The position numbers and the translations under genes are program-made. This document shows positions 8,818 through 30,332 of a stretch of DNA of 36,110 bases, piece after piece. Source of the DNA: an uncultured Flavobacteriales bacterium (lineage in GTDB: Bacteria > Bacteroidota > Bacteroidia > Flavobacteriales > UBA7430); NCBI GenBank assembly GCA_913041775.1, contig CAJWJW010000001.1, forward strand, positions 1 to 36,110, written 5' to 3'. Within the stretch, counting starts at the first letter, position 1; every line of letters starts with the position of its first letter. The notes below the pieces were generated by a model, which was not told where the DNA came from, ran no database searches, and saw nothing but the letters and a program-made list of their open reading frames with translations.

Positions 8818-10875
8818 ATGAAAAATAGACCAGTAAGCTTTTTGATCCTTAGTCTTCTATTAATATCCTCATGTATGGAGCACGATCTAACTAGTTTGTC
8901 TTCTGAAATTGATGTAGAATATAATCTTGCTATACCTTTAATACATTCTACAACTAGACTCGGAGATTTGTTGCCAGAGAATGAAAACATGTCTACCGAT
9001 GATGATGGCTTAATTCGGATATCATTTCGTCAGGATAGTATTGCTGAAATTTTAAGTGATAGTTTATTAGTGATAGAAAATCAAGAACCTACACTTGAAG
9101 AATTTACGGTAGGAGAAATTGCTATACCTGCTTTTACTAGTAATGTAACAATCGTTATGGGTGACTTAACGAGTAATTTAGATCCCACTATTTCAAGTCA
9201 AATATCAGAAGCTATAGATTATAGTCAGGATTTTGGTTCTGCTTATTTCCCACCAATAGAAGAGCAGTCTGGGGGTGTTTATAATGCCCAAGGTTCCGAT
9301 CAATTTCATTCTGTTTTTATTTCAGAAGGACAATTAAGTATTACCATTACAAACAATTTAGCTATCGATTTAAGTGTTCTTAATTTAAGACTTCGCAATA
9401 CTATAGACAACTCAGTAGTTGGCTTGTTTGAATTTTCAAATGTACAATCAGGTTCTGTTTCATCATCAATCGTTACTTTAGATGGAGTAAGTTTGTACAG
9501 TGATTTAAGTATGGAAATACTTGATTTAGCCTCCCCAGGAACAGGGACTAATCCACTAGATCAATCTCAATGGGTTCCTATTTCTAATTCTGATGAATTA
9601 GAACTTGTTATTGAAGGTGAAGGCTTAGTCGCTACTGAAGGTATGGTAAAGTTTCCTGCACAATCTGGACCCGATAGCACTTTTGTTGTTGATATGGATT
9701 TTGATGATGATGTTGAAATAGATTTTATAGAAATCGCTGCTGGACAATTTGTTTATTCTTTTAATTCAGACTTAAATACAACGCTAGAATTAACTTTAGA
9801 AATACCACAATTGGTAGATGAGAATAATAATTCATTTATTGAACTCATACAAATCGTAAACTCTGGTTTAGTTACAAATTCAGTTTCTTTAGAAAATTAT
9901 ACATTCGATTTTTCTAATTCTCTAAATCAATTACAAGTAATTTATAGTTCTCAGATATTAGCGAGTCAGAATTATGTCTCGTATGATGAAACAAATGAAA
10001 TTTCATTGACAATTGGGATGGAGGATTTAGAGTTCAATTTAATACAAGGTTACTTTGGGCAGTTAGAGGAAATAATAGCTGAAGAAGTACTCGATTTAGA
10101 CTTAAGTGTTTTGGCCGATATTTCTTCAGGAATTATTTTAGAATCTCCAAAATTGATTTTTTCTGCAGATAACTCAATCGGTATTCCATTTGAAATAGAT
10201 CTAGCACTAGTTGGAGAGAATGGTACCGGGCTAATAAACCTAGCTGGCCCTTTGCTTGAAATTGCCTCAGATCAAATGAGTCAAACTACTTTCGACAACA
10301 CAAACTCTCAATTGCCAGAATTGATTGCTTTAAATCCAACGGCTATAACTTACAGCGGGAGTGTAATATCTAACCCTATTGGCAACACAGGCTTACCTAA
10401 TATTTTAAGGCCAAATACAAGTATAGTATTAGGTTTCGAAATGGACTTACCACTTCATTTACGTATCCAGGACGCTCTTACTAAAGATACACTCGATTTA
10501 TCGTTTGACTTTGATAGTCCTGCAGATAAGATAGAATCTGTTAAAATGAAATTACGTACGCAAAATGAATTCCCACTAGATGTAGGCTTAAGTATGTTTT
10601 TTGAAGATTCTATTAGTGGTGCGATACTAGATTCTTTAACTATAGATTTACTAGAGGCCGCTCCAGTAGATGAGAATGGGAGAACAATTGAGGCTATAAT
10701 TTACAAAAGTAATATTGTGATTAATGCCGACCAGTTTGAAGCTCTACTAAATTCTAATAGAACTATTCTAGATATTCGAATGAATTCTTACAATAGTGAA
10801 AACACAGCCATTAAGTTATATACCGACTATGAGTTTATTATTGATGCTGGGATTATTGTTGAATTAAAAATGTAA
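8818..10875 (+). CDS. Large acidic lipoprotein of unknown function
   Basis: 685 aa. Signal peptide with lipobox LLISSC. D/E/S/N/I/L-rich and beta-rich looking, with almost no Cys after the lipobox. I recognise no family motif. Confidence 0.75.
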   Translation: MKNRPVSFLILSLLLISSCMEHDLTSLSSEIDVEYNLAIPLIHSTTRLGDLLPENENMSTDDDGLIRISFRQDSIAEILSDSLLVIENQEPTLEEFTVGEIAIPAFTSNVTIVMGDLTSNLDPTISSQISEAIDYSQDFGSAYFPPIEEQSGGVYNAQGSDQFHSVFISEGQLSITITNNLAIDLSVLNLRLRNTIDNSVVGLFEFSNVQSGSVSSSIVTLDGVSLYSDLSMEILDLASPGTGTNPLDQSQWVPISNSDELELVIEGEGLVATEGMVKFPAQSGPDSTFVVDMDFDDDVEIDFIEIAAGQFVYSFNSDLNTTLELTLEIPQLVDENNNSFIELIQIVNSGLVTNSVSLENYTFDFSNSLNQLQVIYSSQILASQNYVSYDETNEISLTIGMEDLEFNLIQGYFGQLEEIIAEEVLDLDLSVLADISSGIILESPKLIFSADNSIGIPFEIDLALVGENGTGLINLAGPLLEIASDQMSQTTFDNTNSQLPELIALNPTAITYSGSVISNPIGNTGLPNILRPNTSIVLGFEMDLPLHLRIQDALTKDTLDLSFDFDSPADKIESVKMKLRTQNEFPLDVGLSMFFEDSISGAILDSLTIDLLEAAPVDENGRTIEAIIYKSNIVINADQFEALLNSNRTILDIRMNSYNSENTAIKLYTDYEFIIDAGIIVELKM

Positions 10876-10877
10876 GA

Positions 10878-12209
10878 ATGATGCGGAATTTTATACTACT
10901 ACTTATTGCAGTTATAGTCAGTTTTAATACTCTGGCTCAAAATAGCTCAGCCAGCTATCACTCACAATCTTTTGTTCTTCAGTCAAGTGCAAATTCCTCC
11001 GTTTTCCCCGAGGCTAATATTGTACTTGGTTTGCCTGCATTTTCAAATGTTAATTTGGGTATGCAGTGGCCCCTTAGCCTAAACGACTTTCTTCAAAAAC
11101 AGACGGATGATTCTCTTCATTTTAACTTGCCTTTGTTGAGGTCTAATTTGAAAAAAGAAAATATTTTGAATTCGAGTTTTAGAAATCAATTATTTTATTT
11201 TGGAATTAAAGTAGGAAAAAAGAAAAATGTATTCGTTTATATTGGCGATGAATTAGTTGTTGATGCTGGAATGCAATTCTCTAATAAATTAGTAGATTAT
11301 TTAACCCAAGGGAATGCAAATTTCATCAATCAACGTATGGTGTTTGATTCACAAATAATTGAATTCACCGCTTATAATAGTTTGTATTTAGGAACTGCAA
11401 TAAAAGTAAATAAAAAGCTTGAAATTGGCGCACGTATTAAAATACTCCGAGGTATTGCCAATGTTCATACCCAAAAACTCAAGTTTAGTGCTTTTACTGA
11501 TTCTACATCGAGCCCAATATTTTCTACCGAGCTAAGCTCTGATATTCTTATCCTAACATCGGGTAGGGGTGCAGCCGATAAATCATTACTATTCGACCCG
11601 AAGCTAAATAAAGGTTTTGCTATTGACCTTGGTGCTTCATATGTTTTTACCGATCAATTTACTGCCAGTATTGCACTCAATGATATTGGGTCGATAAATT
11701 GGGATAAGTCAAATACCACTCTCTTTACTACTAATGGGGAAAAAGAATTTGAAATTGTAGGACTTAGTCAGTCTAGTGCTGGCGGAGAAGACTTGTTAGC
11801 CCAAATAGAAACCCTGTCGGATTCATTGCTACTGACACTTCAGCCTGCAGAAGCTCTTGGAGCCTACTCAACAAAATTAAATCCAAAATTCTTTTTAGGA
11901 CTCTCCTATTCAATAACTAGTAAACATAGCTTTTCTGCATTGTATAATTGGAGGAGGAACTTAAGTAAAGGTGCTAGTGCAATAAGTTTAGGGTATCAAT
12001 TCCAGTTGGTAAATTCCTTAGAACTTCTTACTTCTTTAAGCAGATTCTCTAAAAACACATCTTTAGCTGCAGGTTTCGTTTGGAGTCCAGGACCTGTGCA
12101 ATTAAATGTTTTAGTCGATAATATAATGTTTGTAGATTTATTTAATGCTAAGAGTTTGTTTCTTCAGTTTGGTCTAAGCTTTCAGCTGGGAAAATCACAA
12201 ATGCAGTAA
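10878..12209 (+). CDS. Putative outer-membrane beta-barrel protein of unknown family
   Basis: 443 aa. Signal peptide ending TLAQ. Alternating hydrophobic/polar strands throughout (e.g. GFAIDLGASYVF, LSLGYQFQL, LAAGFVWS, LFLQFGLSFQLG). The start is 2 nt after the stop of the preceding gene. Confidence 0.65.
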   Translation: MMRNFILLLIAVIVSFNTLAQNSSASYHSQSFVLQSSANSSVFPEANIVLGLPAFSNVNLGMQWPLSLNDFLQKQTDDSLHFNLPLLRSNLKKENILNSSFRNQLFYFGIKVGKKKNVFVYIGDELVVDAGMQFSNKLVDYLTQGNANFINQRMVFDSQIIEFTAYNSLYLGTAIKVNKKLEIGARIKILRGIANVHTQKLKFSAFTDSTSSPIFSTELSSDILILTSGRGAADKSLLFDPKLNKGFAIDLGASYVFTDQFTASIALNDIGSINWDKSNTTLFTTNGEKEFEIVGLSQSSAGGEDLLAQIETLSDSLLLTLQPAEALGAYSTKLNPKFFLGLSYSITSKHSFSALYNWRRNLSKGASAISLGYQFQLVNSLELLTSLSRFSKNTSLAAGFVWSPGPVQLNVLVDNIMFVDLFNAKSLFLQFGLSFQLGKSQMQ

Positions 12210-12322: not shown

Positions 12323-12330
12323 TAAGTTTG
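12323..12330 (+). promoter_or_regulatory. Candidate -7 box TAagTTTG for paralog 1
   Basis: Exact TAnnTTTG, 51 nt upstream of ATG 12382. Confidence 0.4.
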
Positions 12331-12381: not shown

Positions 12382-15300
12382 ATGAAAAAGTTACTACTAT
12401 CTTTTTGTGTTGTTATGTTTAATTTCAACGCTTTTTCACAATGTGAAATCCCACAATTTTTTACTGGAAATACAGGCTCTAATATGACTGTGATGCTTAC
12501 TCCAGACTTTATTAACTCTCTTGCCTTTATTTCTGAAGATGCATATATTGTTGCAGTTACTCCAGAAGGTATGGTTGTTGGTTCTAAAGCTATCTTTGGT
12601 TTGCCTCAGACTTCTTTAGCAGTTTGGGGAGATGATTCTTCTACTACTGAGCTCGATGGAGCTCCTTCTGGTGTTGAAATCAGTTTACAATTAATCGATG
12701 GTGGCAATTTATATGATTTATCAATCCCTAGTGCCATAATTTATTCTACTGGTGGTATGGTTGTGCAAAGTTCTCCTGTTACTGCAGACTTATGTGGTGG
12801 GGATGTTCTTGGCGGAGATTGTGTATATCCAGGTATCTATTCTGGGAATACTGGAAATAACATGACTCTTATGTTAACTCCAGGCTTTATCTCTGCTCTT
12901 TTGATTACAGATGAGTCGGCTTACATTTCAGTTTCATCTAACGGTATGTTAGTTGGTTCTGTTGGTGTTTTCGGTCTTTCTCAAACATCCTTAGCTGTAT
13001 GGGGAGACGATTCTTCTACTCCTGAAACTGATGGTGCTGTACTAGGCGTAAATGTGGTAATGGAATTAGTCGACGGCTCAAACATCTATTTATTGAACAC
13101 TGAAGATGTTGGATACGTTGTGAATGGTACTCAAATTTTATCTTCTTTAAACTCACAAGTTCTTACTTGTGGCTTAATAGATATTGAAGGTTGTATGGAA
13201 GAATGGGCTGAAAACTTCAATCCAAGCGCAAATGTTTCTGATGAATCTTGTTTCTTAACAGGTTGTATGGATTCAGAAGCTAATAACTATATTGAACTTG
13301 CAAACACTGCAAGCGAATGTGAATATTTAGGATGTACAAATTCTAATGCTTGTAATTTTGATGCGCAGGCAAATAACGATGATGATTCTTGTTTCTTTAA
13401 TGAAGTTGGATACGATTGTGACGGTGTTTGTTTGGTCGATTCTGATGCCGATGGTGTTTGTGATGGTTTTGAAGTTTTAGGTTGTATAGATAATACTGCC
13501 TGTAACTATAATGAATTGGCAACTGATGCTGGTTTTTGTACTTACCCTTCAGAAGAATGGTTAAACTGTGAAGAACAGTGTAATAACGATTTAGATAACG
13601 ATGGTGTGTGTGATGAGTTTGAAGTTGAAGGTTGTATTGACCCAACAGCATTTAATTACAATTCAAATGCAACTAACGATGACGGTTCTTGTATTGCTAT
13701 ATCTTTAGGATGTACTAATGTAAACGCCACTAACTTTAATGCTTCTGCTAATACTGATAATGGATCGTGTTTAGTTGAAGGTTGTACAGATGCTTCCGCT
13801 TTTAACTTTAATGCAGATGCAAATATAAACGACGGATCTTGTGAGGCTGTAATTGAAGGTTGTACAGATGTTGATGCTGCAAACTATGATGAGTCTGCAA
13901 ATATTGACAACGGTACATGTGAAGATGTTTCTTACGGTTGTATAGATGCTAACGCTTTAAATTACGATTCAAGTGCCAACACCAACGATGACTCATGTGA
14001 ATACCTTTCGTTTTCTGGTAACTGGCCTTCTTCTGCAGACGGTATTACAAATACAGGGAATAACTCTACAATTGGTGTTTCTGCTGATTTAGATCTTGAA
14101 GATGGTGACTACTTAGGTGCTTTCTACGAATCTAATGGAGAGTTAGTTTGTGGTGGTTTATTAGTTTGGGATACTGATGCTGTAAATCAATTAATTGTTG
14201 TTTGGGGTAATGACGCAAACAGTGAAATTAAAGATGGTTTTGATTCTGGCGAACAAATTGTTTGGAAATCTAGAGATATATCCGCAGACGTAGATGCTAG
14301 TTTATATCCTATTTATTCTTTAGGATCTAATACTTATATGGTAAACGCTGCATATATTATTACAGGTTGGATTATAGATCCTGAATATGGTTGTATGGAT
14401 GCTGCTTATTTAGAGTTTAGTTCTTCTGCTTTAGTTTCAGATGGTTCTTGTTCTATATTTTGGAGTTCTTTATATGCTCTGCAAGCCGATGAATTAGCTG
14501 CTGCAAATGTTGTTATTGATGAGTTGAGTACAGACTTGTTAAATATTAACAATACTTTAAATATGACGATTCTTTCTATGCAATCAGACTTCGATAATAT
14601 GGTGTTAGATTACCAAGGACAGTTGTTTGTTTTAGAAAGTACATTAACTGACTCGTTAAATGATGTACATGCATCTTATATTGCAGACATTACTTCTCTT
14701 AACAGCTCTTGGGATATTGAAGTTGCTGGTTTAGAAAATGACCTTGTTGTATTAAATCAAGGTCTAGTAGATTCTATATCTTCTTATGAAACTCAAATAG
14801 CTAACTTAACTTCATTAATGAATTCTGATGTTGCTGATTTAGAAGCGGCTATTCTTTCTCTTCAGTCTGATAGTTTAGGTTTAGAGAATTTGTTAGCTAG
14901 CACGATTTTAGATTATGATTCTCAAATTGCAACTCTTAATGCTTCATGGGATTCTGAGGTTGCTGGTCTTAATGCAGATATAGATGGTTTAAATACTGAC
15001 TTAGCAAATACAATTTCAAGTTACGACACTCAAATTGCTAACTTAATTAGTTCTTACGACACAGAAATTGTAGCAATCAATGCTACACACGACTTAATTG
15101 TTGAAGGACTTAATGCTGATGCAGCTGCCGCTGCTGATGCTGCACTTGATTTGTTAAATCAAACTATTGATAACTACGACTTAGATCTAGAAAATATGGA
15201 GTTTGATTATGAGTCTCAGTTAGCTACTTTAATTGCTAATTACGATAACACAATCGCAATTCTAAATGCTAACGACGCATCAGAAGATGCAGCTTACGAA

Positions 15301-15888
15301 GAGCACGTAGCTAATTTACAATCAGACAGTACTCAATTTGAATTAGAAATTGATTTCTTAATGACGTATAATGAATCTTTAGATACTGATATTGCTAATT
15401 TACAAGCTGAGAATATTGATCTTACTGAAAACTTAACTTATCATTCTACTGCATTGTATGTTGATTTAAATCAGGGATGGAATATGATTGGTTTCCCTTT
15501 ACAAGAGGAGATGGATGCTGCAGCTTCTTTGGAAGTGCTAGGGTCAGATTTACACTTAATCAAAAACAACTTTGCTGCAGTATATTGGCCAGAATTTGGA
15601 TTCAATAGTTTAGGTACTTTAGTTCCTGGACAAGGATATCAAGTTCGTATGTATGAAGCTTACGCAAATTATACTTTCCCTTATATCTCTGGAGAAAGAT
15701 TAGATGTTTACCCTCAAATACCTACTTGGGCAATAGAAATGGAAATCCCTTCTCATCCAAATGATACTCATACCTTGGTGCGAGTAGTGAATATGATGGG
15801 GCAAGAAGTAATACCTGCCGATGTATTCAAAGGTGAAGTATTATTGTATTTATACTCAGATGGTACAGTTGAAAAGACCATCAATTAA
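12382..15888 (+). CDS. Giant modular secreted protein, paralog 1. Order: signal peptide, 2 NTGSNMT modules, 9 Cys-bounded repeats with 2 TSP3-like motifs, a third NTGSNMT-like module, 1 Cys repeat, ~325 aa acidic helical stalk, conserved C-terminal domain
   Basis: 1168 aa uninterrupted ORF. Signal peptide MKKLLLSFCVVMFNFNAFSQ. Modules identified by internal and between-paralog similarity. Has its own promoter box and terminator. Confidence 0.9.
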   Translation: MKKLLLSFCVVMFNFNAFSQCEIPQFFTGNTGSNMTVMLTPDFINSLAFISEDAYIVAVTPEGMVVGSKAIFGLPQTSLAVWGDDSSTTELDGAPSGVEISLQLIDGGNLYDLSIPSAIIYSTGGMVVQSSPVTADLCGGDVLGGDCVYPGIYSGNTGNNMTLMLTPGFISALLITDESAYISVSSNGMLVGSVGVFGLSQTSLAVWGDDSSTPETDGAVLGVNVVMELVDGSNIYLLNTEDVGYVVNGTQILSSLNSQVLTCGLIDIEGCMEEWAENFNPSANVSDESCFLTGCMDSEANNYIELANTASECEYLGCTNSNACNFDAQANNDDDSCFFNEVGYDCDGVCLVDSDADGVCDGFEVLGCIDNTACNYNELATDAGFCTYPSEEWLNCEEQCNNDLDNDGVCDEFEVEGCIDPTAFNYNSNATNDDGSCIAISLGCTNVNATNFNASANTDNGSCLVEGCTDASAFNFNADANINDGSCEAVIEGCTDVDAANYDESANIDNGTCEDVSYGCIDANALNYDSSANTNDDSCEYLSFSGNWPSSADGITNTGNNSTIGVSADLDLEDGDYLGAFYESNGELVCGGLLVWDTDAVNQLIVVWGNDANSEIKDGFDSGEQIVWKSRDISADVDASLYPIYSLGSNTYMVNAAYIITGWIIDPEYGCMDAAYLEFSSSALVSDGSCSIFWSSLYALQADELAAANVVIDELSTDLLNINNTLNMTILSMQSDFDNMVLDYQGQLFVLESTLTDSLNDVHASYIADITSLNSSWDIEVAGLENDLVVLNQGLVDSISSYETQIANLTSLMNSDVADLEAAILSLQSDSLGLENLLASTILDYDSQIATLNASWDSEVAGLNADIDGLNTDLANTISSYDTQIANLISSYDTEIVAINATHDLIVEGLNADAAAAADAALDLLNQTIDNYDLDLENMEFDYESQLATLIANYDNTIAILNANDASEDAAYEEHVANLQSDSTQFELEIDFLMTYNESLDTDIANLQAENIDLTENLTYHSTALYVDLNQGWNMIGFPLQEEMDAAASLEVLGSDLHLIKNNFAAVYWPEFGFNSLGTLVPGQGYQVRMYEAYANYTFPYISGERLDVYPQIPTWAIEMEIPSHPNDTHTLVRVVNMMGQEVIPADVFKGEVLLYLYSDGTVEKTIN
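13189..14004 (+). repeat. Array of ~21-23 aa Cys-bounded coding repeats (GC[TIM]D..A.N[YF]...AN.[DN][DN]GSC) with two DxDxDGVCD.FEV inserts
   Basis: Nine copies read directly from the translation (aa 270-541 of paralog 1). Diverged at the nucleotide level. Confidence 0.85.
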
Positions 15889-15903
15889 TGGCATAAAAAT
15901 TGT

Positions 15904-15939
15904 AAAAAAAAATGGAGGCTAAACGCTTCCATTTTTTTT
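15904..15939 (+). terminator. Rho-independent terminator after paralog 1
   Basis: An A-run, then an 8-bp stem atggaggc / gcttccat (one G-U pair) with loop taaac, then T8. Confidence 0.75.
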
Positions 15940-15966
15940 CTTTATTAATAACTTAATAACTTGTTT

Positions 15967-18765
15967 ATGAAAAAGCTCTTTTCGGTACTATCTGCATGTT
16001 TGCTGATAGCCCTCCCCTTACAGGCTCAAATTGAGCCGGCTCAATGCGATTTAGATTTCGATTTTGTGAATACAGGATCTAATATGACCGCATTTTTCAC
16101 CCCACCCGCTGCTGCTTCAATCTATAGTGAATTGGGAGATGGTGTTGTTGGTGCTTTTTATTTAGCCGAAAATGGTGAGTTTGTATGTGCTTCTTCCGCT
16201 ACTTTTACTGGTAATCAGTTGCAGTTAGCTGTAATGGCAAATGATGCAACAACTACAGAAAAAGATGGTTTCAATTCTGGAGAAGCTATAAATTGGTTTT
16301 ATCAATCTACTGATGGCACAAGCTATTCTTTATCTTTAGCTCCATCTGATAATTTTGTTATCAATGCGATGACTTTTATTAATTCATCGGCGTATTCTGA
16401 AATTGATTGTGCCGGTGGTAATGACGGTACTTGTCCACCTTTAGATGTAAACTTTGTGAACACTGGATCTAACATGACTTTATTTCTTACTAGTCCCTCT
16501 TTATTGACAGATTTGGGTAATGGAACAGTTGGTGTTTATTTTATAGACGACAATGGTGTTGAAATTTGTGGAGGGGCTTCTAGTTTTTCAGGAGGACAAG
16601 TTCAAATTGCTGCCATGGGTAATGATGCTACAACAAATGTAAAAGATGGTTTTTCTGCAGGAGAAGCTATTGTTTGGAAATTTGAAAGTAACGATGGTAG
16701 TCAATATAATTTAACTCCAAGTCCACAAGATGTTTTTACTTTAAATGCTACTTCTTTCGTAGTTGGTATGTCTAACGATGCAATATCTTGTTCTGTTGAT
16801 GTCGAAGGCTGTACAGATAATACTTATTTAGAGTACAATTCTAATGCAACTATAGATGATGGTTCGTGTATTTTAGTTGCTATTGCGGGCTGTACAGATT
16901 CAAATTATGTTGAGTATTATGCAAATGCAAATGTAGATGATGGCTCCTGTGTTACAGTGAGTTTAGATGGTTGTACAGATGCAACGGCATGTAATTATAA
17001 TTCAGCTGCAACAACAGAGGATGGTTCTTGTTATAATAATGATTTAGGTTGTGGATGTGATACTCCAGCAGCTGATGATGGTTATGATTGTGATGGAAAT
17101 TGTTTAAATGATGCCGATGGAGATCAAGTATGTGATGAAGATGAAGTAGTTGGCTGTCAAGATCAAGAAGCTGACAACTATGATTTAAGTGCAACAGATA
17201 CAGGATATTGTGAATATGAAGGTTGTACAGATACAAGTTATTTAGAGTATGACTCTAGTGCAAACGTTGATGATGGTTCCTGTACTACTTTAATATCCGA
17301 AGGATGTACAGATTCAAATGCAACCAATTATGATTCTTCAGCTAATACTTCTGATGGCTCATGTGAATATGATTTAATTGGTGCAGGATGTTCAGTAAGT
17401 TTTGAAACAACAAATACTGGTTCTAATGCAACAGTATTTCTGACACCAACAGCTGTAGAAGGTACGCCTCTATCATTAGGAGATAATATAGGTGTGTTCT
17501 ATGTTTCAGAAGATGGAAGTGCGCACTGCGCAGGTTCTACTCAGTGGACAGGAGGTGCTGTTCAGATTGCAGCCTATGGAGATGATACAACAACAGATGA
17601 GATAGATGGTTTAAGTTCGGGTGCACCTTTGTTGCTACTTGCTCAATCTGGAGATGATGTATATTTAGTATCAGCCTCTTATGAGACACCAAGTATGTCA
17701 ACATTTGCTATTAACGGTATTTCATTTGTTGTAGGCTTAGATTTTGAATCAGCTTGTACAGTAGAATATTTTGGTTGTACAGATCTGAATGCCTGTAACT
17801 ATGATCTCTCAGCAAATACAGATAACGGTTCTTGTTCATATCCAGAAGAATATTATAACTGTGTAGGTTCTTGTCTTAGTGATTTTGATGAGGATGGTAT
17901 TTGTGATGCTCTTGAATTAGGAGGGTGTACTGATATTACTGCTTCAAATTATGACTCTTCAGCAACGGAAGATGATCTTTCGTGTATTTCGTGGGAAGAT
18001 GCTTACAATTCTTGTGTAGAATCCGGAGGAGATGATGGTGTTTCTCAATCTGATGTAGATGCCGTACAAGCTTTACTAGATGCAATTGTTCCTGAAGACG
18101 GTGTTTCTCAATCTGATGTAGATGCCGTACAAGCTTTACTAGATGCAATTGTGCCAGAAGATGGTGTTTCTCAATCTGATGTAGATGCAGTTCAAGCTTT
18201 ATTAGATGCTATTGTGCCAGAAGACGGTATTACTCAAGCTGATCTAAATGCAGCAAATTCAACTATTTCTTTATTGCAAACTCAATTAGATGAAGCTTTA
18301 GGTAATACAGGATCTTCGTGTGATCCAATTTATGTTGATTTACTAGCTGGATGGAATATAATTGGGTTTACTTTAAACTCAAGTCAAGACGTTGTTGCTA
18401 CCCTGGATCCTATTGTAGATGCTGTACAAATTGTTAAAAACAATGCTGCCAATGTTTATTGGCCAGAGTACGGGTTTAATGGTATTGGAGACTTTATTCC
18501 TGGGCAAGGTTATCAAATCAGAATGTATAATGAGGTTTCTGATTATACATTCCCTGATACTGATGGTCAACGAATGAATTTAAATTTAACAGTTCCTTCA
18601 TATGTGTATGATTTACCTATTTTAAATCATCCAAATGATATAAAATCTCTTGTACGTGTAGTAAATATGTTAGGTCAAGAAGTGAGTCCTGATGAACAAT
18701 TTAAGGGTACGATTTTATTGTATTTATTTAACGATGGTAGTACAGAAAAAAGAATCGTAGAGTAA
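15967..18765 (+). CDS. Giant modular secreted protein, paralog 2. Order: signal peptide, 2 NTGSNMT modules, 6 Cys repeats plus a TSP3-like motif, a third module, 2 Cys repeats plus a TSP3-like motif, 3x21-aa tandem repeat stalk, conserved C-terminal domain
   Basis: The ORF is open from TTG 15961. ATG 15967 (MKKLFSVLSACLLIALPLQAQ) is the likely start. Same module order as paralogs 1 and 3. Confidence 0.9.
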   Translation: MKKLFSVLSACLLIALPLQAQIEPAQCDLDFDFVNTGSNMTAFFTPPAAASIYSELGDGVVGAFYLAENGEFVCASSATFTGNQLQLAVMANDATTTEKDGFNSGEAINWFYQSTDGTSYSLSLAPSDNFVINAMTFINSSAYSEIDCAGGNDGTCPPLDVNFVNTGSNMTLFLTSPSLLTDLGNGTVGVYFIDDNGVEICGGASSFSGGQVQIAAMGNDATTNVKDGFSAGEAIVWKFESNDGSQYNLTPSPQDVFTLNATSFVVGMSNDAISCSVDVEGCTDNTYLEYNSNATIDDGSCILVAIAGCTDSNYVEYYANANVDDGSCVTVSLDGCTDATACNYNSAATTEDGSCYNNDLGCGCDTPAADDGYDCDGNCLNDADGDQVCDEDEVVGCQDQEADNYDLSATDTGYCEYEGCTDTSYLEYDSSANVDDGSCTTLISEGCTDSNATNYDSSANTSDGSCEYDLIGAGCSVSFETTNTGSNATVFLTPTAVEGTPLSLGDNIGVFYVSEDGSAHCAGSTQWTGGAVQIAAYGDDTTTDEIDGLSSGAPLLLLAQSGDDVYLVSASYETPSMSTFAINGISFVVGLDFESACTVEYFGCTDLNACNYDLSANTDNGSCSYPEEYYNCVGSCLSDFDEDGICDALELGGCTDITASNYDSSATEDDLSCISWEDAYNSCVESGGDDGVSQSDVDAVQALLDAIVPEDGVSQSDVDAVQALLDAIVPEDGVSQSDVDAVQALLDAIVPEDGITQADLNAANSTISLLQTQLDEALGNTGSSCDPIYVDLLAGWNIIGFTLNSSQDVVATLDPIVDAVQIVKNNAANVYWPEYGFNGIGDFIPGQGYQIRMYNEVSDYTFPDTDGQRMNLNLTVPSYVYDLPILNHPNDIKSLVRVVNMLGQEVSPDEQFKGTILLYLFNDGSTEKRIVE
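18037..18225 (+). repeat. Three tandem 63-nt coding repeats, each encoding GVSQSDVDAVQALLDAIVPED
   Basis: Copies at 18037, 18100 and 18163. By my alignment all 8 nucleotide differences between copies are synonymous. A degenerate fourth unit follows at 18226. Confidence 0.95.
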
Positions 18766-18787
18766 TATTATTCATACTAAATTTCTA

Positions 18788-18820
18788 AAGGGCTATGTTT
18801 ATAAAACATAGCCCTTTTTT
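18788..18820 (+). terminator. Rho-independent terminator after paralog 2
   Basis: 11-bp stem gggctatgttt (18790-18800) / aaacatagccc (18804-18814) with loop ata, then T6. Confidence 0.8.
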
Positions 18821-18861
18821 ATGTTTTAACAATTTAGTATTGTAATTTGTATATATAAATG

Positions 18862-18869
18862 TATATTTG
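18862..18869 (+). promoter_or_regulatory. Candidate -7 box TAtaTTTG for paralog 3
   Basis: Exact TAnnTTTG, 35 nt upstream of ATG 18905. Confidence 0.45.
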
Positions 18870-18886
18870 AGGAATACACTGAATAT

Positions 18887-18901
18887 TTAACTAAATCCCC
18901 C
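18887..18901 (+). promoter_or_regulatory. Conserved leader motif TTAACTAAATCCCCC upstream of paralog 3
   Basis: Identical 15-mer to 12361-12375. It ends 3 nt before the start codon. Confidence 0.35.
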
Positions 18902-18904
18902 ATC

Positions 18905-21900
18905 ATGAGAAAAATCTATACTTTTTTCTGTTGTTTGACTTTACTCTTGGCTTCCAGCCAATTGAGTGCCACTAATTTTGATGTCGTAAACACAGGGTCT
19001 AATATGACCGTATTCGTAACTCCAGAGGCAAATATTTCTGGAGACTTTGTAAATGTGACCCAAATTGGTATTTTTTATACTAATGACGCGGGTGAACTTA
19101 CTTGTGCTGGATCGTCTCCTTTTTCAGGAAGCGCACCATTTCAAATTACTGTCTGGGGTACTGAGGCAGCAGAACTTGATAATGGAATGGCTAATGGAGA
19201 AGAGCTAACGTGGTTAGCTCAATCTGACAATGGCTATTTATATGATATCACTCCTTCTTATCAGACTGAGGTAATGAATGTATATGCTTTGAATGCAATT
19301 TCATTTGTAACTGGAATCGATTTTTCTTTAGTTGATTCTTCCGTTATAGAAGGTTGTATGGATGGTCATTACATAGAATACGATGTAAACGCAAATGTTA
19401 ATGTTCAAGCTCTTTGTATTACTTGGAAAGTAACTGGTTGTACTGATGCAGATTATGTAGAATTTAACGAAGATGCTAACTCTGATGATGGATCGTGTGA
19501 GAACTTAGTTCCTACTTGTGATGGTTCTGAAGTAACAATAAATATGTTTGACTCTTATGGAGACGGTGGAGGAAGTGTTACTGTAGGTGACGTTACTGCT
19601 ACTAATGCTGGTGCTGGATCATCAACTATTGCATGTGTAGATTTATCAGCATGTAATGCAGTAGTTTATTTAGCAACTGATACCTATGCATATGAAAATA
19701 GCTGGACTATAACTGACGCATCTGGAGCACTATTAGCAGCAGGTGGAGCAGAAGATGGTTCGTTTGGAGGATGTGTAACAGCATGTACAGATGATACAGC
19801 AACAAACTATAATGCAGATGCAGACATTTCTGACAATGCATTATGTGAGTATGAATTAGTACAAGGATGTACAGAAGCTACCGCTTGTAACTTTGATGCA
19901 ACTGCAGAACAAGATGATGCATCTTGTACTTATGCTGCAGCAGGCTTTGACTGTGACGGAAACTGTATCTCAGGAACACTTGTAACTGTAGACGGTGGAA
20001 ATTATTTAGGAGAAAAATCTTGGACTATTGCAGATTGTGATGGAACAGAATTAGCTGCCGGTGGCGCACCATTTGCTGGATGTGCTGACTTAAGCGGTTC
20101 TTATACAATTAACTTAGTAGATGCATTCGGTGACGGATGGGATGGAACAGTAATGACAATCGGAGAGTCTACTTATACAGTAGAGTCAGGTGCAACAGCA
20201 TCATTCGATATGGGTTGTGTTGTTTTAGGTTGTACAGATGCTACTGCAACAAACTATAATGTAGCTGCTAATACTGATGACGGGTCATGTGACTTTGATG
20301 TTATGGGTTGTACTAACGACCTTGCATGTAACTACGATGTAGCTGCAACTGCTGATAATGGTTCTTGTACTTATGCAGATGCTGGACTTGACTGTGATGG
20401 AAATTCTATAGGTGAGCCTTGTGCTGCTTTAGACTTCTCTTCAGTTAATACTGGATCAAACATGACATTGTTTATTACACCTAATGCTTTAGAAGGACCT
20501 TTATCAATAGGAGACATGATTGGTGTGTTCTATACAAATGATATTGGTAACTTAGTTTGTGCAGGTTCATCATCATGGACTGGGTCTTCAATGCAAGTAA
20601 CTGCATGGGGAGACGATTCTTCTGCAGACGGTATAGATGGATACAACGCAGGAGATGAGCTAGTATGGATGGCTCAAACTTCTGGAGGTATTTATAATAT
20701 TTCTAGTTCATATTCTAATGGTGAAGGAACATATTCCTTGAATGGAGTGTTGTTTGTCTCTGCTTTAGACTATACTTATTCTTGTACAGGTAATGCAGCT
20801 TCAGGTTGTACTGATGCAACTGCTTTAAATTACAGTCCAAACGCTATTGTAGATGATGGATCTTGTATCGCTACAATTGAAGGTTGTATGGATGGTCATT
20901 ACATAGAATACGATGTAAACGCAAATGTTAATGTTCAAGCTCTTTGTATTACTTGGAAAGTAACTGGTTGTACTGATGCAGATTATGTAGAATTTAACGA
21001 AGATGCTAACTCTGATGATGGATCGTGTGAGAACTTAGTTCCTACTTGTGATGGTTCTGAAGTAACAATAAATATGTTTGACTCTTATGGAGACGGTGGA
21101 GGAAGTGTTACTGTAGGTGACGTTACTGCTACTAATGCTGGTGCTGGATCATCAACTATTGCATGTGTAGATTTATCAGCATGTAATGCAGTAGTTTATT
21201 TAGCAACTGATACCTATGCATATGAAAATAGCTGGACTATAACTGACGCATCTGGAGCACTATTAGCAGCAGGTGGAGCAGAAGATGGTTCGTTTGGAGG
21301 ATGTGTAACAGCATGTACAGATGATACAGCAACAAACTATAATGCAGATGCAGACATTTCTGACAATGCATTATGTGAGTATGAATTAGTACAAGGATGT
21401 ACAGAAGCTACCGCTTGTAACTTTGATGCAACTGCAGAACAAGATGATGCATCTTGTACTTATGCTGCAGCAGGCTTTGACTGTGACGGAAACTGTATCT
21501 CAGGAACACTTGTAACTGTAGACGGTGGAAATTATTTAGGAGAAAAATCTTGGACTATTGCAGATTGTGATGGAACAGAATTAGCTGCCGGTGGCGCACC
21601 ATTTGCTGGATGTGCTGACTTAAGCGGTTCTTATACAATTAACTTAGTAGATGCATTCGGTGACGGATGGGATGGAACAGTAATGACAATCGGAGAGTCT
21701 ACTTATACAGTAGAGTCAGGTGCAACAGCATCATTCGATATGGGTTGTGTTGTTTTAGGTTGTACAGATGCTACTGCAACAAACTATAATGTAGCTGCTA
21801 ATACTGATGACGGGTCATGTGAGTATGCTGTTCTAGGTTGTACTGATCTTACTGCTTCTAATTATAACGGTGAAGCAACTGATGATGATGGTTCGTGTAT

Positions 21901-22903
21901 TTCGTGGCTAGATGTTGCTACTGGTTTACAAGCTGATTTAGATTACACAAATGCTGCAATTGTTGAAGCTCAAACTTCACTAGATGCCGCTCTTGTTGCA
22001 ATTTCTGAAATGGAAGCTTTAGGATCTCAGTATTTAGCTGAATATCTTGCTGCTGTAGAAGCTGCTTCATATGCACAAGGTCAGTTAGATGATGCTCTTG
22101 CTAATGTGTCAGACTTAGAAGCTCAATTAGAAACTGCTATGGCAAACCAAGAAGATGGTATATCTCAAGCAGATTTAGATGCTCAAGCCGATTTATCTTA
22201 TGGATATGGTTACGACTTGGGTTACTCTGACGGTGAAGCTTCTGTAACACCAGAAGATGGTATATCTCAAGCTGATGTAGATGCTCAAGCCGATTTATCT
22301 TATGGATATGGTTACGGTGATGGTGCAGCTTCTGTAACACCAGAAGATGGTATATCTCAAGTAGATGTAGATGTTGCTGTAAGTGCTGCAGATCTTATCT
22401 CAGGAGGAATTATTGCTGACTTACAAGCTGAATTAGATGATGCTCTAGCTAATTCTTGCGCTCCTATATATGTTGATATTGTGGATGGATGGAATATCTT
22501 AGGATATACATTGTCTTATGAGCAAGATGTAGTTGCTACACTTTCTTCAATAGAAGTGTCAATTGCTATTGTTAAAGATAATAATGCAAATGTGTACTGG
22601 CCTGAGTTTGGCTTTAATGGTATAGGAAACTTTATTCCTGGTCAAGGTTACCAGATTAAAACATTCTCTGCAATTGAAGGCTATACATGGCCAAATACAA
22701 ATGGTGAGCGTATCGAAATGTCTCCAACAGTACCTCAATGGGCTGCTAATATGGAAGCTGATGTTCATCCAAACGATATTCGTTCACTTGTAAAAGTGGT
22801 GAATATGTTAGGTCAAGAAGTAAATGTTCAAGATCAATTTAAAGGTGAAGTTGTATTGTATTTATACAATGACGGAACTGTAGAAAAGAAAATTGTTCAA
22901 TAA
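18905..22903 (+). CDS. Giant modular secreted protein, paralog 3. Order: signal peptide, NTGSNMT module, duplicated block of Cys repeats plus GDG/SW modules, second NTGSNMT module, second copy of the block, helical segment, tandem acidic repeats, conserved C-terminal domain
   Basis: 1332 aa uninterrupted ORF. Signal peptide MRKIYTFFCCLTLLLASSQLSA. Shares N-terminal module, Cys repeats and C-terminal domain with paralogs 1 and 2. Confidence 0.9.
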   Translation: MRKIYTFFCCLTLLLASSQLSATNFDVVNTGSNMTVFVTPEANISGDFVNVTQIGIFYTNDAGELTCAGSSPFSGSAPFQITVWGTEAAELDNGMANGEELTWLAQSDNGYLYDITPSYQTEVMNVYALNAISFVTGIDFSLVDSSVIEGCMDGHYIEYDVNANVNVQALCITWKVTGCTDADYVEFNEDANSDDGSCENLVPTCDGSEVTINMFDSYGDGGGSVTVGDVTATNAGAGSSTIACVDLSACNAVVYLATDTYAYENSWTITDASGALLAAGGAEDGSFGGCVTACTDDTATNYNADADISDNALCEYELVQGCTEATACNFDATAEQDDASCTYAAAGFDCDGNCISGTLVTVDGGNYLGEKSWTIADCDGTELAAGGAPFAGCADLSGSYTINLVDAFGDGWDGTVMTIGESTYTVESGATASFDMGCVVLGCTDATATNYNVAANTDDGSCDFDVMGCTNDLACNYDVAATADNGSCTYADAGLDCDGNSIGEPCAALDFSSVNTGSNMTLFITPNALEGPLSIGDMIGVFYTNDIGNLVCAGSSSWTGSSMQVTAWGDDSSADGIDGYNAGDELVWMAQTSGGIYNISSSYSNGEGTYSLNGVLFVSALDYTYSCTGNAASGCTDATALNYSPNAIVDDGSCIATIEGCMDGHYIEYDVNANVNVQALCITWKVTGCTDADYVEFNEDANSDDGSCENLVPTCDGSEVTINMFDSYGDGGGSVTVGDVTATNAGAGSSTIACVDLSACNAVVYLATDTYAYENSWTITDASGALLAAGGAEDGSFGGCVTACTDDTATNYNADADISDNALCEYELVQGCTEATACNFDATAEQDDASCTYAAAGFDCDGNCISGTLVTVDGGNYLGEKSWTIADCDGTELAAGGAPFAGCADLSGSYTINLVDAFGDGWDGTVMTIGESTYTVESGATASFDMGCVVLGCTDATATNYNVAANTDDGSCEYAVLGCTDLTASNYNGEATDDDGSCISWLDVATGLQADLDYTNAAIVEAQTSLDAALVAISEMEALGSQYLAEYLAAVEAASYAQGQLDDALANVSDLEAQLETAMANQEDGISQADLDAQADLSYGYGYDLGYSDGEASVTPEDGISQADVDAQADLSYGYGYGDGAASVTPEDGISQVDVDVAVSAADLISGGIIADLQAELDDALANSCAPIYVDIVDGWNILGYTLSYEQDVVATLSSIEVSIAIVKDNNANVYWPEFGFNGIGNFIPGQGYQIKTFSAIEGYTWPNTNGERIEMSPTVPQWAANMEADVHPNDIRSLVKVVNMLGQEVNVQDQFKGEVVLYLYNDGTVEKKIVQ
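19349..20292 (+). repeat. Copy 1 of a 944-bp perfect direct repeat inside paralog 3
   Basis: Line-by-line comparison with 20879-21822 (offset exactly 1530 nt, i.e. 510 codons) showed no mismatch. Confidence 0.93.
20879..21822 (+). repeat. Copy 2 of the 944-bp perfect direct repeat inside paralog 3
   Basis: Identical to 19349-20292 and in the same reading frame. Identity ends at the codon gac/gag (D463 versus E973). Confidence 0.93.
22151..22342 (+). repeat. Tandem coding repeats of 102 and 90 nt (EDGISQAD[LV]DAQADLSYGYGY...ASVTP), with a partial third unit from 22343
   Basis: Units start at 22151, 22253 and 22343. They are near-identical apart from one internal indel. Confidence 0.9.
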
Positions 22904-22920
22904 ATTATTTTCTGATAATC

Positions 22921-22953
22921 AAAAGCCTCTTCTGAAAAGAAGAGGCTTTTTTT
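22921..22953 (+). terminator. Rho-independent terminator after paralog 3
   Basis: 8-bp stem gcctcttc (22925-22932) / gaagaggc (22939-22946) with loop tgaaaa, then T7. Confidence 0.8.
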
Positions 22954-23021: not shown

Positions 23022-23555
23022 ATGTCTGAAGAATTAAAACAACATGTGCTTAAAAATGGATTAAGCCTTGGAGCAATATTAGTTGCCATTACTACAATTA
23101 CTTATATTGGAGGTCCTGAATTACTAACGAATTATGCTGTATCTATCAGTTCATTTGTTTTAATGATCGCTTTCCCTATTTATCACACTCGTAGATTTAG
23201 ATCTTTAAATGATGGCTTTATAAGCTTCAGAGATGCATTTACCTCTTGTACGGGTATCTTAATTGCTGCAGGCTTTATAAATACCTTTGCGAGTATTCTT
23301 CTTTACAATATAATCGATCCAGATTTTGGTCTTGAGGTTATTGATGCTATTATTAATAAAACAGTTTCTCAATTAGAAAGTATAGGAGCAGAGGAGTCTA
23401 TAATTGAAGCAACAATAAAGAACTTGGAGGAAGGTTCTAGTTTTGATGCACTTAATATGTTTAAGGGCTTCATCTTCTCTATAGTCTTTTATACCGTATT
23501 TGGTCTTTTAGTTGCAGCTTTCACTAAGAACGAAAATCAACAACTTAGCGAGTAA
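23022..23555 (+). CDS. DUF4199-family membrane protein
   Basis: 177 aa with four predicted TM helices and an ISFRDAF motif. It sits upstream of a GT2 gene, as in many Bacteroidota (recollection, not searched). Confidence 0.65.
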   Translation: MSEELKQHVLKNGLSLGAILVAITTITYIGGPELLTNYAVSISSFVLMIAFPIYHTRRFRSLNDGFISFRDAFTSCTGILIAAGFINTFASILLYNIIDPDFGLEVIDAIINKTVSQLESIGAEESIIEATIKNLEEGSSFDALNMFKGFIFSIVFYTVFGLLVAAFTKNENQQLSE

Positions 23556-23559
23556 TTAA

Positions 23560-24504
23560 GTGGAGAAACTACAACTATCTATCTGTATACCTCTGTTTAA
23601 CGAGGCCGAATCACTTCAAGAACTTCACTCATGGATAACACGAGTGATGGTGAAACATTCTTTTACCTACGAAATAGTTTTTGTAGATGATGGAAGTACT
23701 GATAATTCATGGGAAATTGTTGCTAATCTAGCTAAAGACGATAGTTCTGTAAAAGGAATTAAATTTCGCAGAAATTATGGTAAATCTGCGGGGCTTTATG
23801 TAGCTTTCGAAGCTGCTAAAGGAGATGTTATTATTACCATGGACGCAGACTTACAAGATAGCCCTGAAGAAATAGCAGAGCTCTATAGAATGATTAAGGA
23901 AGATGGATTACACCTTGTTTCGGGATATAAAGAAAAGCGATTTGACCCCTTAACAAAAACAATCCCTACAAAACTATTTAATTGGGCTACTAGAAAAATG
24001 TCTGGTATAACTTTAAACGATTTTAATTGTGGCTTAAAGTCCTACGACCATAAAGTAGTTAAGAGCATTGAGGTTTACGGCGAAATGCATCGTTATATTC
24101 CCGTATTAGCTAAATGGGCTGGATTTGATAAAATTGGTCAAAAGGTTGTACAACACCAAGAAAGAAAATATGGTGTTACTAAATTTGGAATTGAACGTTT
24201 TATAAACGGATTCTTAGATTTATTCACAGTTATGTTTATTTCTAAATTTGGTAAAAAACCAATGCACCTTTTTGGATTAATGGGTGTTTTAAGCTTTGCT
24301 ATTGGTTTTGCAATTGCTACCTATTTAGTTTTTGCTAAACTTATGTGGCAAGCTTATAATATGACAGATAGACCTTTGTTTTACTTTGGGATGTTAGCTA
24401 TGATAATTGGAGCACAATTATTCATGACTGGCTTTATAGCAGAATTAATTGCTCGTTCTAACACCGATCGCAATAAATATATTATAGAAGACCTTCTGAA
24501 TTAA
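23560..24504 (+). CDS. Family 2 glycosyltransferase, polyprenyl-phosphate sugar transferase type (GtrB/ArnC/DPM1-like), GTG start
   Basis: 314 aa. LSICIPLFNEAESL, FVDDGSTDNS, ITMDADLQD (DxD), and two C-terminal TM helices. There is an in-frame stop immediately upstream of the GTG, and the first ATG would remove the conserved N-terminus. Confidence 0.88.
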   Translation: MEKLQLSICIPLFNEAESLQELHSWITRVMVKHSFTYEIVFVDDGSTDNSWEIVANLAKDDSSVKGIKFRRNYGKSAGLYVAFEAAKGDVIITMDADLQDSPEEIAELYRMIKEDGLHLVSGYKEKRFDPLTKTIPTKLFNWATRKMSGITLNDFNCGLKSYDHKVVKSIEVYGEMHRYIPVLAKWAGFDKIGQKVVQHQERKYGVTKFGIERFINGFLDLFTVMFISKFGKKPMHLFGLMGVLSFAIGFAIATYLVFAKLMWQAYNMTDRPLFYFGMLAMIIGAQLFMTGFIAELIARSNTDRNKYIIEDLLN

Positions 24505-24509
24505 TATTA

Positions 24510-25631: not shown

Positions 25632-25681
25632 CATCTACTGCGTAGTATAAATTAGTATATTTAGCCTCTTAAAATTAGATT

Positions 25682-29167: not shown

Positions 29168-29193
29168 TCCTGTTGTTTAAAACCTAATTTTTT

Positions 29194-29226
29194 AAATGCC
29201 ACCGAAATTCGGTGGCATTTTTGTTT
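29194..29226 (+). terminator. Rho-independent terminator after the M36 protease gene
   Basis: Stem aaatgccaccg (29194-29204) / cggtggcattt (29210-29220) with loop aaatt, followed by a T-rich tail. Confidence 0.8.
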
Positions 29227-29237
29227 TTGCTATATTT

Positions 29238-29509: not shown

Positions 29510-29573
29510 AATACAAAATGCCGAAGCTTCATTCTGAGAAAAAGTATCTTTATATTTACCAAAACTTCTATTT

Positions 29574-30260: not shown

Positions 30261-30332
30261 GGTTTATTTTAATTATTTAGCTTCTAAAAATTATAAAAAC
30301 ACTTTCTTGAACTGTTTTAATACAATCAATTC

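Follow-up and report, generated by a model that had tools for sequence, protein, structure and literature searches.

The window analysed here is a 36,110-nt chromosomal stretch from an uncultured Flavobacteriales bacterium (lineage UBA7430; assembly GCA_913041775.1, contig CAJWJW010000001.1). It contains three consecutive genes on the + strand, designated A, B and C (12382-22903), which encode giant secreted proteins whose last ~50 residues form a strongly conserved tail. The three genes belong to a family that is specific to marine Flavobacteriales and is defined by one or more N-modules, a GWN domain (both described below) and this tail at the exact C-terminus. They probably represent giant Bacteroidota surface proteins of the T9SS (type IX secretion system) type, built from undescribed domain families and bearing an unusually short candidate sorting signal. 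We put at roughly 0.55 the probability that A, B and C are adhesin- or coat-like cell-surface proteins exported by the T9SS with a shortened variant of its C-terminal domain (CTD). For this reading we infer T9SS dependence, disulfides, Ca2+ binding, surface location and the adhesive role from the sequences. Uncultured, small-genome Flavobacteriales are major bacteria of the surface ocean, and it is their surface proteins that determine how the cells attach to particles and algae and how far they are exposed to phages and grazers. These surface proteins are almost entirely unannotated.

Three tandem genes encoding secreted proteins

Gene A (12382-15888) encodes 1168 aa and gene C (18905-22903) 1332 aa. 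Gene B (15967-18765) encodes 932 aa from its ATG, or 934 aa from a TTG at 15961; the public gene call starts at ATG 15967, and protein P0108 is 100% identical. The contig is on record in NCBI and ENA, where its proteins are nameless. By inspection, each N-terminus has a plausible Sec-type signal peptide that opens rich in K and R, passes into a hydrophobic core and closes in an AxA-like manner (MKKLLLSFCVVMFNFNAFSQ, MKKLFSVLSACLLIALPLQAQ and MRKIYTFFCCLTLLLASSQLSA). The initial annotation, made from the DNA alone, had described three consecutive same-strand open reading frames (ORFs) of these lengths, each with a signal peptide, and was correct in both respects. The proteins are highly acidic as a whole, with a pI of about 4, 15-16% D+E and 1.0-1.4% K+R.

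A conserved tail at the exact C-terminus

The C-terminal ~148 aa of A, B and C share 49-59% identity, compared with about 30-35% elsewhere in the proteins. This region had been taken for one conserved domain of ~145 aa, an assignment that we revise: it consists of a widespread domain of ~80 aa, which we named the GWN domain after its GWN[IM][IL]G motif, and a separable tail of ~50 aa. Hidden Markov models (HMMs) placed the GWN domain at 15442-15696 in A, 18316-18570 in B and 22454-22708 in C, and the tail at 15739-15885, 18613-18762 and 22751-22900, respectively (all + strand). The tail of A, a candidate export signal, reads HPND...VRVVNMMGQEV...LLYLYSDGTVEKTIN.

An alignment of 40 homologous C-termini (alignment A1) showed strong conservation of K..N...YWP, PGQGYQ, HPND, VRVVNMLGQEV and LLYLYNDGTVEKK. 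Within the tail, H, P, N, D, V, N and G never vary, and conservation reaches at least 90% at L, Q, Y, D, E and K; the same level applies to E144 and K145 close to the C-terminal end. The tail is among the best-conserved parts of proteins that otherwise evolve fast. An AlphaFold2 (AF2) model of the C-terminus (predicted local distance difference test score (pLDDT) 85.5, predicted template modelling score (pTM) 0.59) contained a compact alpha/beta unit (residues 1-80), a low-confidence linker and three beta-strands (residues 112-147).

The division into two units was evident from the homologues. Of 120 full-length homologues, 92 matched the HMM of the whole 148 aa from end to end, and in all of these the match closed on the final residue. 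In distant proteins that share the N-module (a ~125-aa unit described below), the match covered the first ~75 residues of the HMM only, and was internal, usually as a tandem GWN-GWN pair. Either nothing came after this match, or additional domains did, a canonical Por_Secre_tail among them (P0271, P0281). Conversely, P0318, P0381 and one ORF of locus L058 end in an N-module and then the tail, with no adjacent GWN domain, and the existence of such proteins identifies the last ~50 residues as a separable unit. The tail HMM stopped at the last residue in 262 of the 273 proteins that it matched. The earlier proposal of anchoring or export through the C-terminus is supported in that the tail is a strongly conserved, strictly C-terminal element of the sorting-signal kind. 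The position and conservation of the tail, like the gene structure, the modules and the family distribution, are direct observations.

The tail as a candidate T9SS sorting signal

A canonical T9SS cargo protein, an M36 protease with a Por_Secre_tail (Pfam, E = 1.3e-15), is encoded six genes downstream, and on this basis the host organism very probably has a T9SS. In A, B and C the tail occupies the extreme C-terminal position of a type A CTD, in proteins with an N-terminal Sec signal peptide as judged by inspection. Comparison of a profile of 83 tails with one of 105 Por tails, using hhalign, aligned LVRVVNMLGQEV with CTD motif D with a score of 19.8 (P = 0.0017). The controls scored lower: the best of 60 column shuffles reached 18.5, the reversed profile 11.1, the N-module 9.3 and the GWN domain 8.8. 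A global alignment of the two put G-x-LLYLYNDGTVEKK opposite the strands of motif E, and the stretch between D and E was about 13 residues shorter in the tail.

The distribution of the two C-terminal elements also bears on the question. Among the fetched proteins and locus ORFs, N-module, GWN domain and tail occurred together in 145, and N-module, GWN domain and Por_Secre_tail in 54, with no case of the tail together with a Por_Secre_tail. L058 contains a GWN-GWN-N-tail counterpart of the GWN-GWN-N-Por cassette seen in Bacteroidota and Ignavibacteriota, with the tail in the place of the Por_Secre_tail. In the CTD of HBP35, the last 22 residues, comprising motifs D and E, are enough to secrete GFP, and the conserved lysines of motif E are required, according to a review (PMC10202324). 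On the whole, the tail behaves like a CTD, and it is probably derived from type A, possibly as a truncated form.

Several results weigh against this assignment. No T9SS component genes are present in the window. None of PF18962, TIGR04183, PF13585 and TIGR04131 was detected in A, B or C (Pfam and NCBIfam, E <= 1) or, at the looser limit of E <= 10, in the 40 homologous C-termini; the same library did recognize the Por_Secre_tail of the M36 protease. In the AF2 model, the C-terminus has only three strands in its last ~40 residues, not the 7-strand Ig-like sandwich of ~70-100 residues, and a Foldseek search of the PDB with the C-terminus model returned no T9SS CTD structure (best E = 0.4). The hhalign match between tails and Por tails has a probability of only 10-40% and covers ~20 columns. 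In addition, Chloroflexota, a phylum not known to have a T9SS, encode N-modules and GWN domains too, so these two domains are not T9SS-specific; the two Chloroflexota loci that were fetched contained neither the tail nor a Por_Secre_tail.

Because the tail departs from type A CTDs in profile and fold, we do not file it as a member of that class. Type B is no better a match: neither PF13585/TIGR04131 nor an adjacent PorP/SprF gene was found, and the neighbouring gene encodes a DUF5723 protein with no PorP/SprF or PorV match in NCBIfam. A third, unrelated 'type C' CTD, neither A nor B, exists (PMC10202324).

The locus offers a concrete candidate, open to testing, for a T9SS export signal that is minimal by nature. 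If a 50-residue tail suffices, this would bear on which CTD motifs the T9SS really reads, and on the number of T9SS substrates missed by current predictors, which depend on TIGR04183 and TIGR04131. Our limited sample already contained at least 270 proteins with the tail.

Modular architecture of A, B and C

The proteins were dissected with regular expressions and HMMs (hmmsearch). Several kinds of element were recognized upstream of the C-terminal region. The N-module (NTG[SN]N[MAS]T, ~125 aa) is present in eight copies (three in A, three in B, two in C) with a mutual identity of 19-48%. Cys-bounded repeats of ~20 aa, of the form GC[TM]Dxx[AY]xN[YF]xxxAxxDDGSC, number 31 (10 in A, 8 in B and 13 in C). 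Four GDG modules, containing ...TINMFDSYGDGGGS..., ...INLVDAFGDGWDG... and ...SWTI[TA]D..G..LAAGG..., are exclusive to C. Each protein also has an acidic stalk (14452-15441 in A, 17989-18315 in B, 21902-22453 in C) with zero Lys and zero Arg. A search with the expression DxDxD[GQ]xCD, which describes motifs similar to those of thrombospondin type 3 (TSP3) repeats, returned A353, A403, B384 and B641, and none in C.

In A, the signal peptide is followed by two tandem N-modules (12439-12810 and 12817-13188, by hmmsearch) and nine Cys-bounded repeats (13192-13998), with DxDxDGxCD motifs at 13438-13464 and 13588-13614. A third N-module (NTGNNST, 14020-14406), one Cys repeat, the helical stalk, the GWN domain and the tail complete the protein. 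The stalk of A, ~330 aa long, contains no K, R, P or C and gives weak matches to coiled-coil families; it is probably alpha-helical. In B, two tandem N-modules (16039-16806) and six Cys repeats (16810-17364, with a TSP3-like motif at 17110-17136) precede a third N-module (NTGSNAT, 17383-17772) and two Cys repeats (17776-17985, with a TSP3-like motif at 17881-17907). These lead into a stalk that holds a tandem repeat (63 nt x 3.5, encoding EDGVSQSDVDAVQALLDAIVP; 18030-18251, Tandem Repeats Finder), then the GWN domain and the tail. In C, the order is signal peptide, N-module, a block of two Cys repeats, GDG, two Cys repeats, GDG and one Cys repeat, then a Cys repeat, the second N-module (20417-20800) and a Cys repeat. 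The block is then repeated, and is followed by a Cys repeat, a stalk with PEDGISQADVDAQADLSYGYGY and PEDGISQADVDA...SYGYGY repeats, the GWN domain and the tail. All of these features lie on the + strand.

A module order common to all three proteins, as initially proposed, is no more than approximately right. C departs from it in having no TSP3-like motifs, four extra GDG modules, no N-module directly before the stalk, and a 944-nt duplication. All three proteins nevertheless have N-modules, a GWN domain and an HPND...VEKK tail at the exact C-terminus, and match the three corresponding HMMs with independent E-values of 1e-30 to 1e-52. For the N-module this match is partly circular, as the HMM was made from the window's own copies, and independent support comes from the exhaustive search described next.

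Unmodelled domain families

No module of A, B or C gave a match above threshold in Pfam-A or NCBIfam. The best sub-threshold matches, Binary_toxB (E = 0.06) and TSP3_bac (E = 0.38), both fell on one DxDxDG loop, and the rest were coiled-coil noise. The 40 C-terminal homologues and the distant relatives gave only spurious coiled-coil or low-complexity matches in the same databases, apart from the domains noted separately here. The initial statement that the modules could not be assigned to known families thus survived the searches of Pfam and NCBIfam.

An exhaustive phmmer search of 1.84 billion cluster representatives, with N-module B2 as the query, returned 629 clusters at E <= 1e-3, 22 of them at E <= 1e-30. 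The N-module is therefore a real, widespread, unmodelled domain. A single protein can have as many as 10 copies, and the longest proteins with the domain reach 6410 aa. The AF2 model of B2, built from a 40-sequence alignment (alignment A2), is a beta-sandwich (pLDDT 93, pTM 0.85). Foldseek found no significant neighbour of this model in the PDB, where the best hit was a weak transthyretin-like sandwich (E = 0.045, TM-score about 0.35), or in the viral library BFVD (best E = 0.046). The N-module profile matched no carbohydrate-binding module (CBM) or lectin family or fold significantly, the lectin matches being sub-threshold (E about 0.07).

The GDG block has relatives only among unannotated marine metagenome proteins, and no PDB match. 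When the Cys-repeat array, the GDG block and the profiles of A1 and A2 were searched against PDB sequences, no significant match emerged, one look-alike of a Cys repeat aside. That repeat, at 13324-13392 (A residues ~315-337), resembles residues 331-353 of MPEG1/perforin-2 (PDB 6SB3 and 6U2J), a segment for which the MPEG1 paper gives no annotation or function.

The literature searched, which covered the repeat motif, DUF5723, poly-C leaders in Bacteroidota and novel CTD classes, contained no account of this family. Matches in the protein homologue search were limited to at most about 1.7x the query length, and short 'proteins' among the homologues are for this reason mostly fragments and not stand-alone domains. 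Altogether, four to five domain families without a model can be defined from this locus: the N-module (629 clusters at 50% identity), the GWN domain, the Cys repeat, the GDG module and the C-terminal tail.

Calcium-type motifs

TSP3_bac (PF18884) matched A at residues 403-415 with 11.1 bits, against a cut-off of 25 bits, and had no match in B or C. A relative with the same repeats, P0172, matched TSP3_bac with E = 1.5e-16. The DxDxDG loops of A and B, the acidic, D-rich ends of the Cys repeats and the TSP3_bac repeats of some relatives make Ca2+ binding plausible for the loops of A and B; as far as the sequences indicate, it would not be a property common to all three proteins.

Divergence of the paralogs and a recent duplication in C

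Outside the duplicated block of C, A, B and C are real, old and maintained paralogs. In their C-termini, synonymous divergence is saturated (pS 0.65-0.74, dS 1.5-3.2), and dN is 0.32-0.45. The earlier view of an old, maintained family, in place of a recent amplification, is accurate outside that block of C, which is a recent, perfect direct repeat of 944 nt. Copy 1 (19349-20292, + strand) encodes five Cys repeats and two GDG modules. Copy 2 (20879-21822, + strand) is 100% identical to it, and the second N-module of C lies between the two.

A C-like orthologue in an independent assembly (locus L005) also contains 100% identical internal repeats, at least 300 nt long (13779-14078 = 14895-15194). 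Since identical repeats are present in an independent assembly, recurrent recent intragenic amplification or gene conversion is a more likely source of the C-type repeats than an assembly artefact. Two proteins of the same length as C (P0115 and P0116, 1332 aa) were considered as orthologues with the same duplication, and were ruled out since they are only about 36% identical to C.

Transcription signals and a poly-C leader

Each gene is followed by a terminator-like hairpin on the + strand (15905-15939 after A, 18787-18817 after B and 22921-22950 after C), with a 13-15-bp stem and a T-run, starting 16-21 nt past the stop codon. A scan of 18 kb (8-26 kb) identified these as the three strongest terminator-like hairpins of the region. 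The total number of sites was not above that of shuffled sequences (10 vs 7.8 +/- 3.3), so the evidence lies in the strength and position of the hairpins and not in their number. A Bacteroidota-type TAnnTTTG (-7) promoter box is present 59 nt upstream of A (TAAGTTTG, 12323-12330, + strand) and is conserved when upstream regions are aligned. A second box lies 43 nt upstream of C (TATATTTG, 18862-18869, + strand); the region upstream of B has none. The Rho-independent terminator of each gene and the box at two of the three genes agree with what the initial annotation had reported.

Immediately before their start codons, A and C share an identical leader, TTAACTAAATCCCC. In A it consists of TTAACTAAAT followed by C8 (12361-12378, + strand), and in C of TTAACTAAAT followed by C5 (18887-18901, + strand); both stop 3 nt short of the ATG. 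The + strand of the window contains only three C runs of at least 5 nt, two of which are these leaders. No poly-C run is present at gene B or at any of the 22 other gene starts of the window.

A survey of 744 kb from 56 related loci yielded 37 runs of five or more C within 8 nt upstream of the ATG of a long ORF. Family genes accounted for 33 of the 37; of the four others, three encode different large proteins whose N-terminus resembles a signal peptide. The length of the run varies from 5 to 11 among orthologues. The consensus is a -7 box (TAAGTTTG), an AT-rich leader, TTTAACTAAA, C(5-11), N(0-7) and ATG. The exact string AACTAAATCCCC, which was considered as a conserved feature, is missing from other loci, and it is the looser TTTAACTAAA with the C run that is conserved instead.

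The poly-C leader had no Rfam match, and no description of it was found in the literature; no known RNA family was detected by Rfam anywhere in the window. The Bacteroidota phylum is without Shine-Dalgarno-based initiation. The leader might serve to control translation or might be a hypermutable tract, and it could represent a new expression-control feature of the phylum.

Distribution of the family and gene neighbourhood

In a taxonomic scan of one genome per GTDB species, the full C-terminus was found only in metagenome-assembled genomes (MAGs) and single-amplified genomes of marine Flavobacteriales. It was present in 17 species-level genomes, with several loci in each and usually in tandem arrays. 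Hosts of the tail family include Cryomorphaceae CM1_5m.P23, MED-G21, UBA6772, X_MB68 and a Crocinitomicaceae MAG. The GWN domain by itself reaches further, into Cytophagia, Bacteroidales, Ignavibacteriota, Fibrobacterota and Chloroflexota (Promineifilaceae). In several other species-level MAGs, A-like, B-like and C-like genes, told apart by their signal peptide and first modules, occur in the same order, and the triad is therefore ancestral to those species.

In loci L059-L073, from Fibrobacterota, Ignavibacteriota, Chloroflexota and Bacteroidota, a C-terminal cassette N-GWN-GWN-N(-Por_Secre_tail) recurs. These loci also contain gene pairs, the first gene encoding a large GWN-GWN protein and the next a smaller protein that begins with an N-module. 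The recurring cassette and gene pairs hint that the N-module and the GWN domain work together.

The window is low in G+C (31-41% per 1-kb window) and contains ordinary housekeeping genes, among them thyA, folA, etfAB and genes for a nucleoside transporter, a two-component system, an ABC-F protein and the beta subunit of pyruvate dehydrogenase. Downstream of the array (23022-31280) are genes for a DUF4199 protein, a GT2 glycosyltransferase (ArnC/PgfS-like), a GT1 glycosyltransferase (GT4-type), the M36 fungalysin protease (with PA, MAM-like and Por_Secre_tail domains), a MORN-repeat protein and a nitronate monooxygenase. The array followed by this block, in this order, recurs whole or in part in at least eight related MAG loci.

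Directly upstream of the array, two genes lie 2 nt apart on the same strand. The first encodes a 685-aa predicted lipoprotein (8818-10875, + strand; lipobox LISSC) with no Pfam or NCBIfam family, and the second a DUF5723 (PF18990) protein (10878-12209, + strand; Pfam E = 1.2e-58). Neither has a similar sequence in the PDB. Going by the titles and contexts of the two papers that mention DUF5723, the latter protein is probably located in the outer membrane. The pair also precedes the A-like gene in L035, and was not seen in the flank of L008. Both are possible accessory genes, and a functional link of the pair to the array, in an accessory or anchoring role, is possible.

Proposed mechanism and alternative explanations

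In the mechanism that we propose, A, B and C would cross the inner membrane via Sec, directed by the N-terminal signal peptide. In the periplasm, each two-Cys repeat would form one disulfide, giving a series of disulfide-closed loops. The proteins would then cross the outer membrane via the T9SS, which would read the last ~50 residues as a shortened type A CTD derivative that keeps a motif-D-like LVRVVNMLGQEV and a motif-E-like end, G-x-LLYLYNDGTVEKKIV. The mature protein would stay at the cell surface or close to it, its GWN domain and its acidic stalk, free of Lys and Arg, being proximal. The distal parts would be rods of Cys repeats, which in A and B include DxDxDG loops of the Ca2+ type, and the N-modules of the N-terminus as binding or coat modules. 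Composition and architecture are the features that suggest a fibrillar, adhesin or coat role. The initial interpretation, of fibrillar, Ca2+-binding surface proteins exported or anchored through the C-terminus, keeps its secreted old paralogs and its conserved C-terminal element, and loses the single 145-aa domain and the notion of exactly one module order.

An unlikely but serious alternative is that GWN domain and tail together form a surface-anchoring or self-assembly module of proteins exported by another route. Here, N-modules and GWN domains would bind head to tail in trans to build a lattice or fibril coat, possibly on the lipoprotein/DUF5723 pair. The co-occurrence of N-modules and GWN domains in proteins and neighbouring genes across four phyla, typically as a large GWN-GWN protein and after it a small one that starts with an N-module (L061, L062, L069, L070, L073), is in keeping with this, as are the position of the lipoprotein/DUF5723 pair directly upstream in the window and in L035, and the failure of every CTD model to recognize the tail. 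However, an anchoring unit of this kind is difficult to reconcile with the tails that have no adjacent GWN domain, with the substitution of the tail for Por_Secre_tail position for position, and with the L008 array, whose upstream flank lacks DUF5723. Moreover, no other outer-membrane export route for proteins of >100 kDa is encoded nearby. Rather improbable, in our view, is that the proteins are released in soluble form to bind glycans or particles, their N-modules capturing algal polymers in the manner of CBMs. The planktonic marine hosts, the compact beta-sandwich predicted by AF2 for the N-module and the weak lectin matches below threshold would suit such a function, and T9SS cargo can be released into the medium (PMC10202324). 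Yet neither a CBM or lectin family nor such a fold was identified with significance, the window contains no glycoside hydrolase or SusC/D genes, and the long stalks suggest display away from a surface.

That the array is an artefact, either a chimera of repeat assembly or a set of decaying pseudogenes, is very improbable and has been largely refuted. The 944-nt perfect repeat of C is of a type that assemblers can mishandle, and the exact sequence of C is recorded only on the contig of this window. Against this, the three ORFs are intact and have their own terminators, with a promoter box at A and C, and an A protein of at least 90% identity is present on two other contigs. More than 90 full-length homologues share the C-terminus, the order of A-, B- and C-like genes is preserved in other MAGs, dN is far below dS in the C-terminal region, and the C-like gene of L005 contains similar 100% identical repeats in an independent assembly. 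The possibility of a chimera or pseudogenes, raised initially as grounds for rejecting the interpretation, is largely excluded by the same evidence.

Returning to T9SS export, a more far-reaching version combines several of the features above, and we regard it as speculative and on balance doubtful. According to it, the HPND...VRVVNMLGQEV...LLYLYNDGTVEKKIV tail would be a new minimal T9SS signal, with motifs D and E only, that evolved in one clade of abundant, planktonic marine Flavobacteriales. Its cargo would be an acidic coat that self-assembles through N-module-GWN contacts, and the poly-C tract (5-11 C), being hypermutable, would tune or switch single genes. If true, this would amount to a variable cell surface facing phages and grazers.

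Comparison with known systems

The acidic DxDxDGxCD loops of A and B resemble those of thrombospondin type 3 and bacterial TSP3 (PF18884) repeats. A and B have only two such motifs each and C has none, the score in A is 11 against 25 bits, and the abundant Cys-bounded repeat of A, B and C is a separate, unmodelled unit. In MPEG1/perforin-2, the segment that resembles a Cys repeat reads GCTNVDSPNFNFQANMDDDSC, compared with the near-identical GCTNSNACNFDAQANNDDDSC; the overall E-value is only 0.025, and either homology or convergence may lie behind the match. The segment is present there as a single copy, in a metazoan pore-forming protein.

The flavobacterial T9SS adhesins SprB and RemA, which have a type B CTD and clustered PorP/SprF genes, are like A, B and C giant, repetitive, secreted surface proteins of Bacteroidota, and in both cases a gene for an outer-membrane protein, here a probable one, lies close by. 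A, B and C differ in lacking SprB repeats and a type B CTD (PF13585/TIGR04131), and in having DUF5723 as the neighbour, not PorP/SprF.

Compared with the CTDs of T9SS type A cargo, such as the window's M36 protease and P. gingivalis RgpB and HBP35, the tail is shorter (~50 aa vs ~75-100 aa), is invisible to the family HMMs and has three strands instead of seven. Its D-E segment is about 13 residues shorter, and it has HPND in place of the usual PNP-type motif. A, B and C nevertheless share with these proteins a Sec signal peptide and a conserved element at the exact C-terminus, which may have a motif-D-like strand and a motif-E-like, Lys-containing end. This element takes the place of Por_Secre_tail after the same N/GWN cassette, in a host genome that encodes a canonical T9SS cargo.

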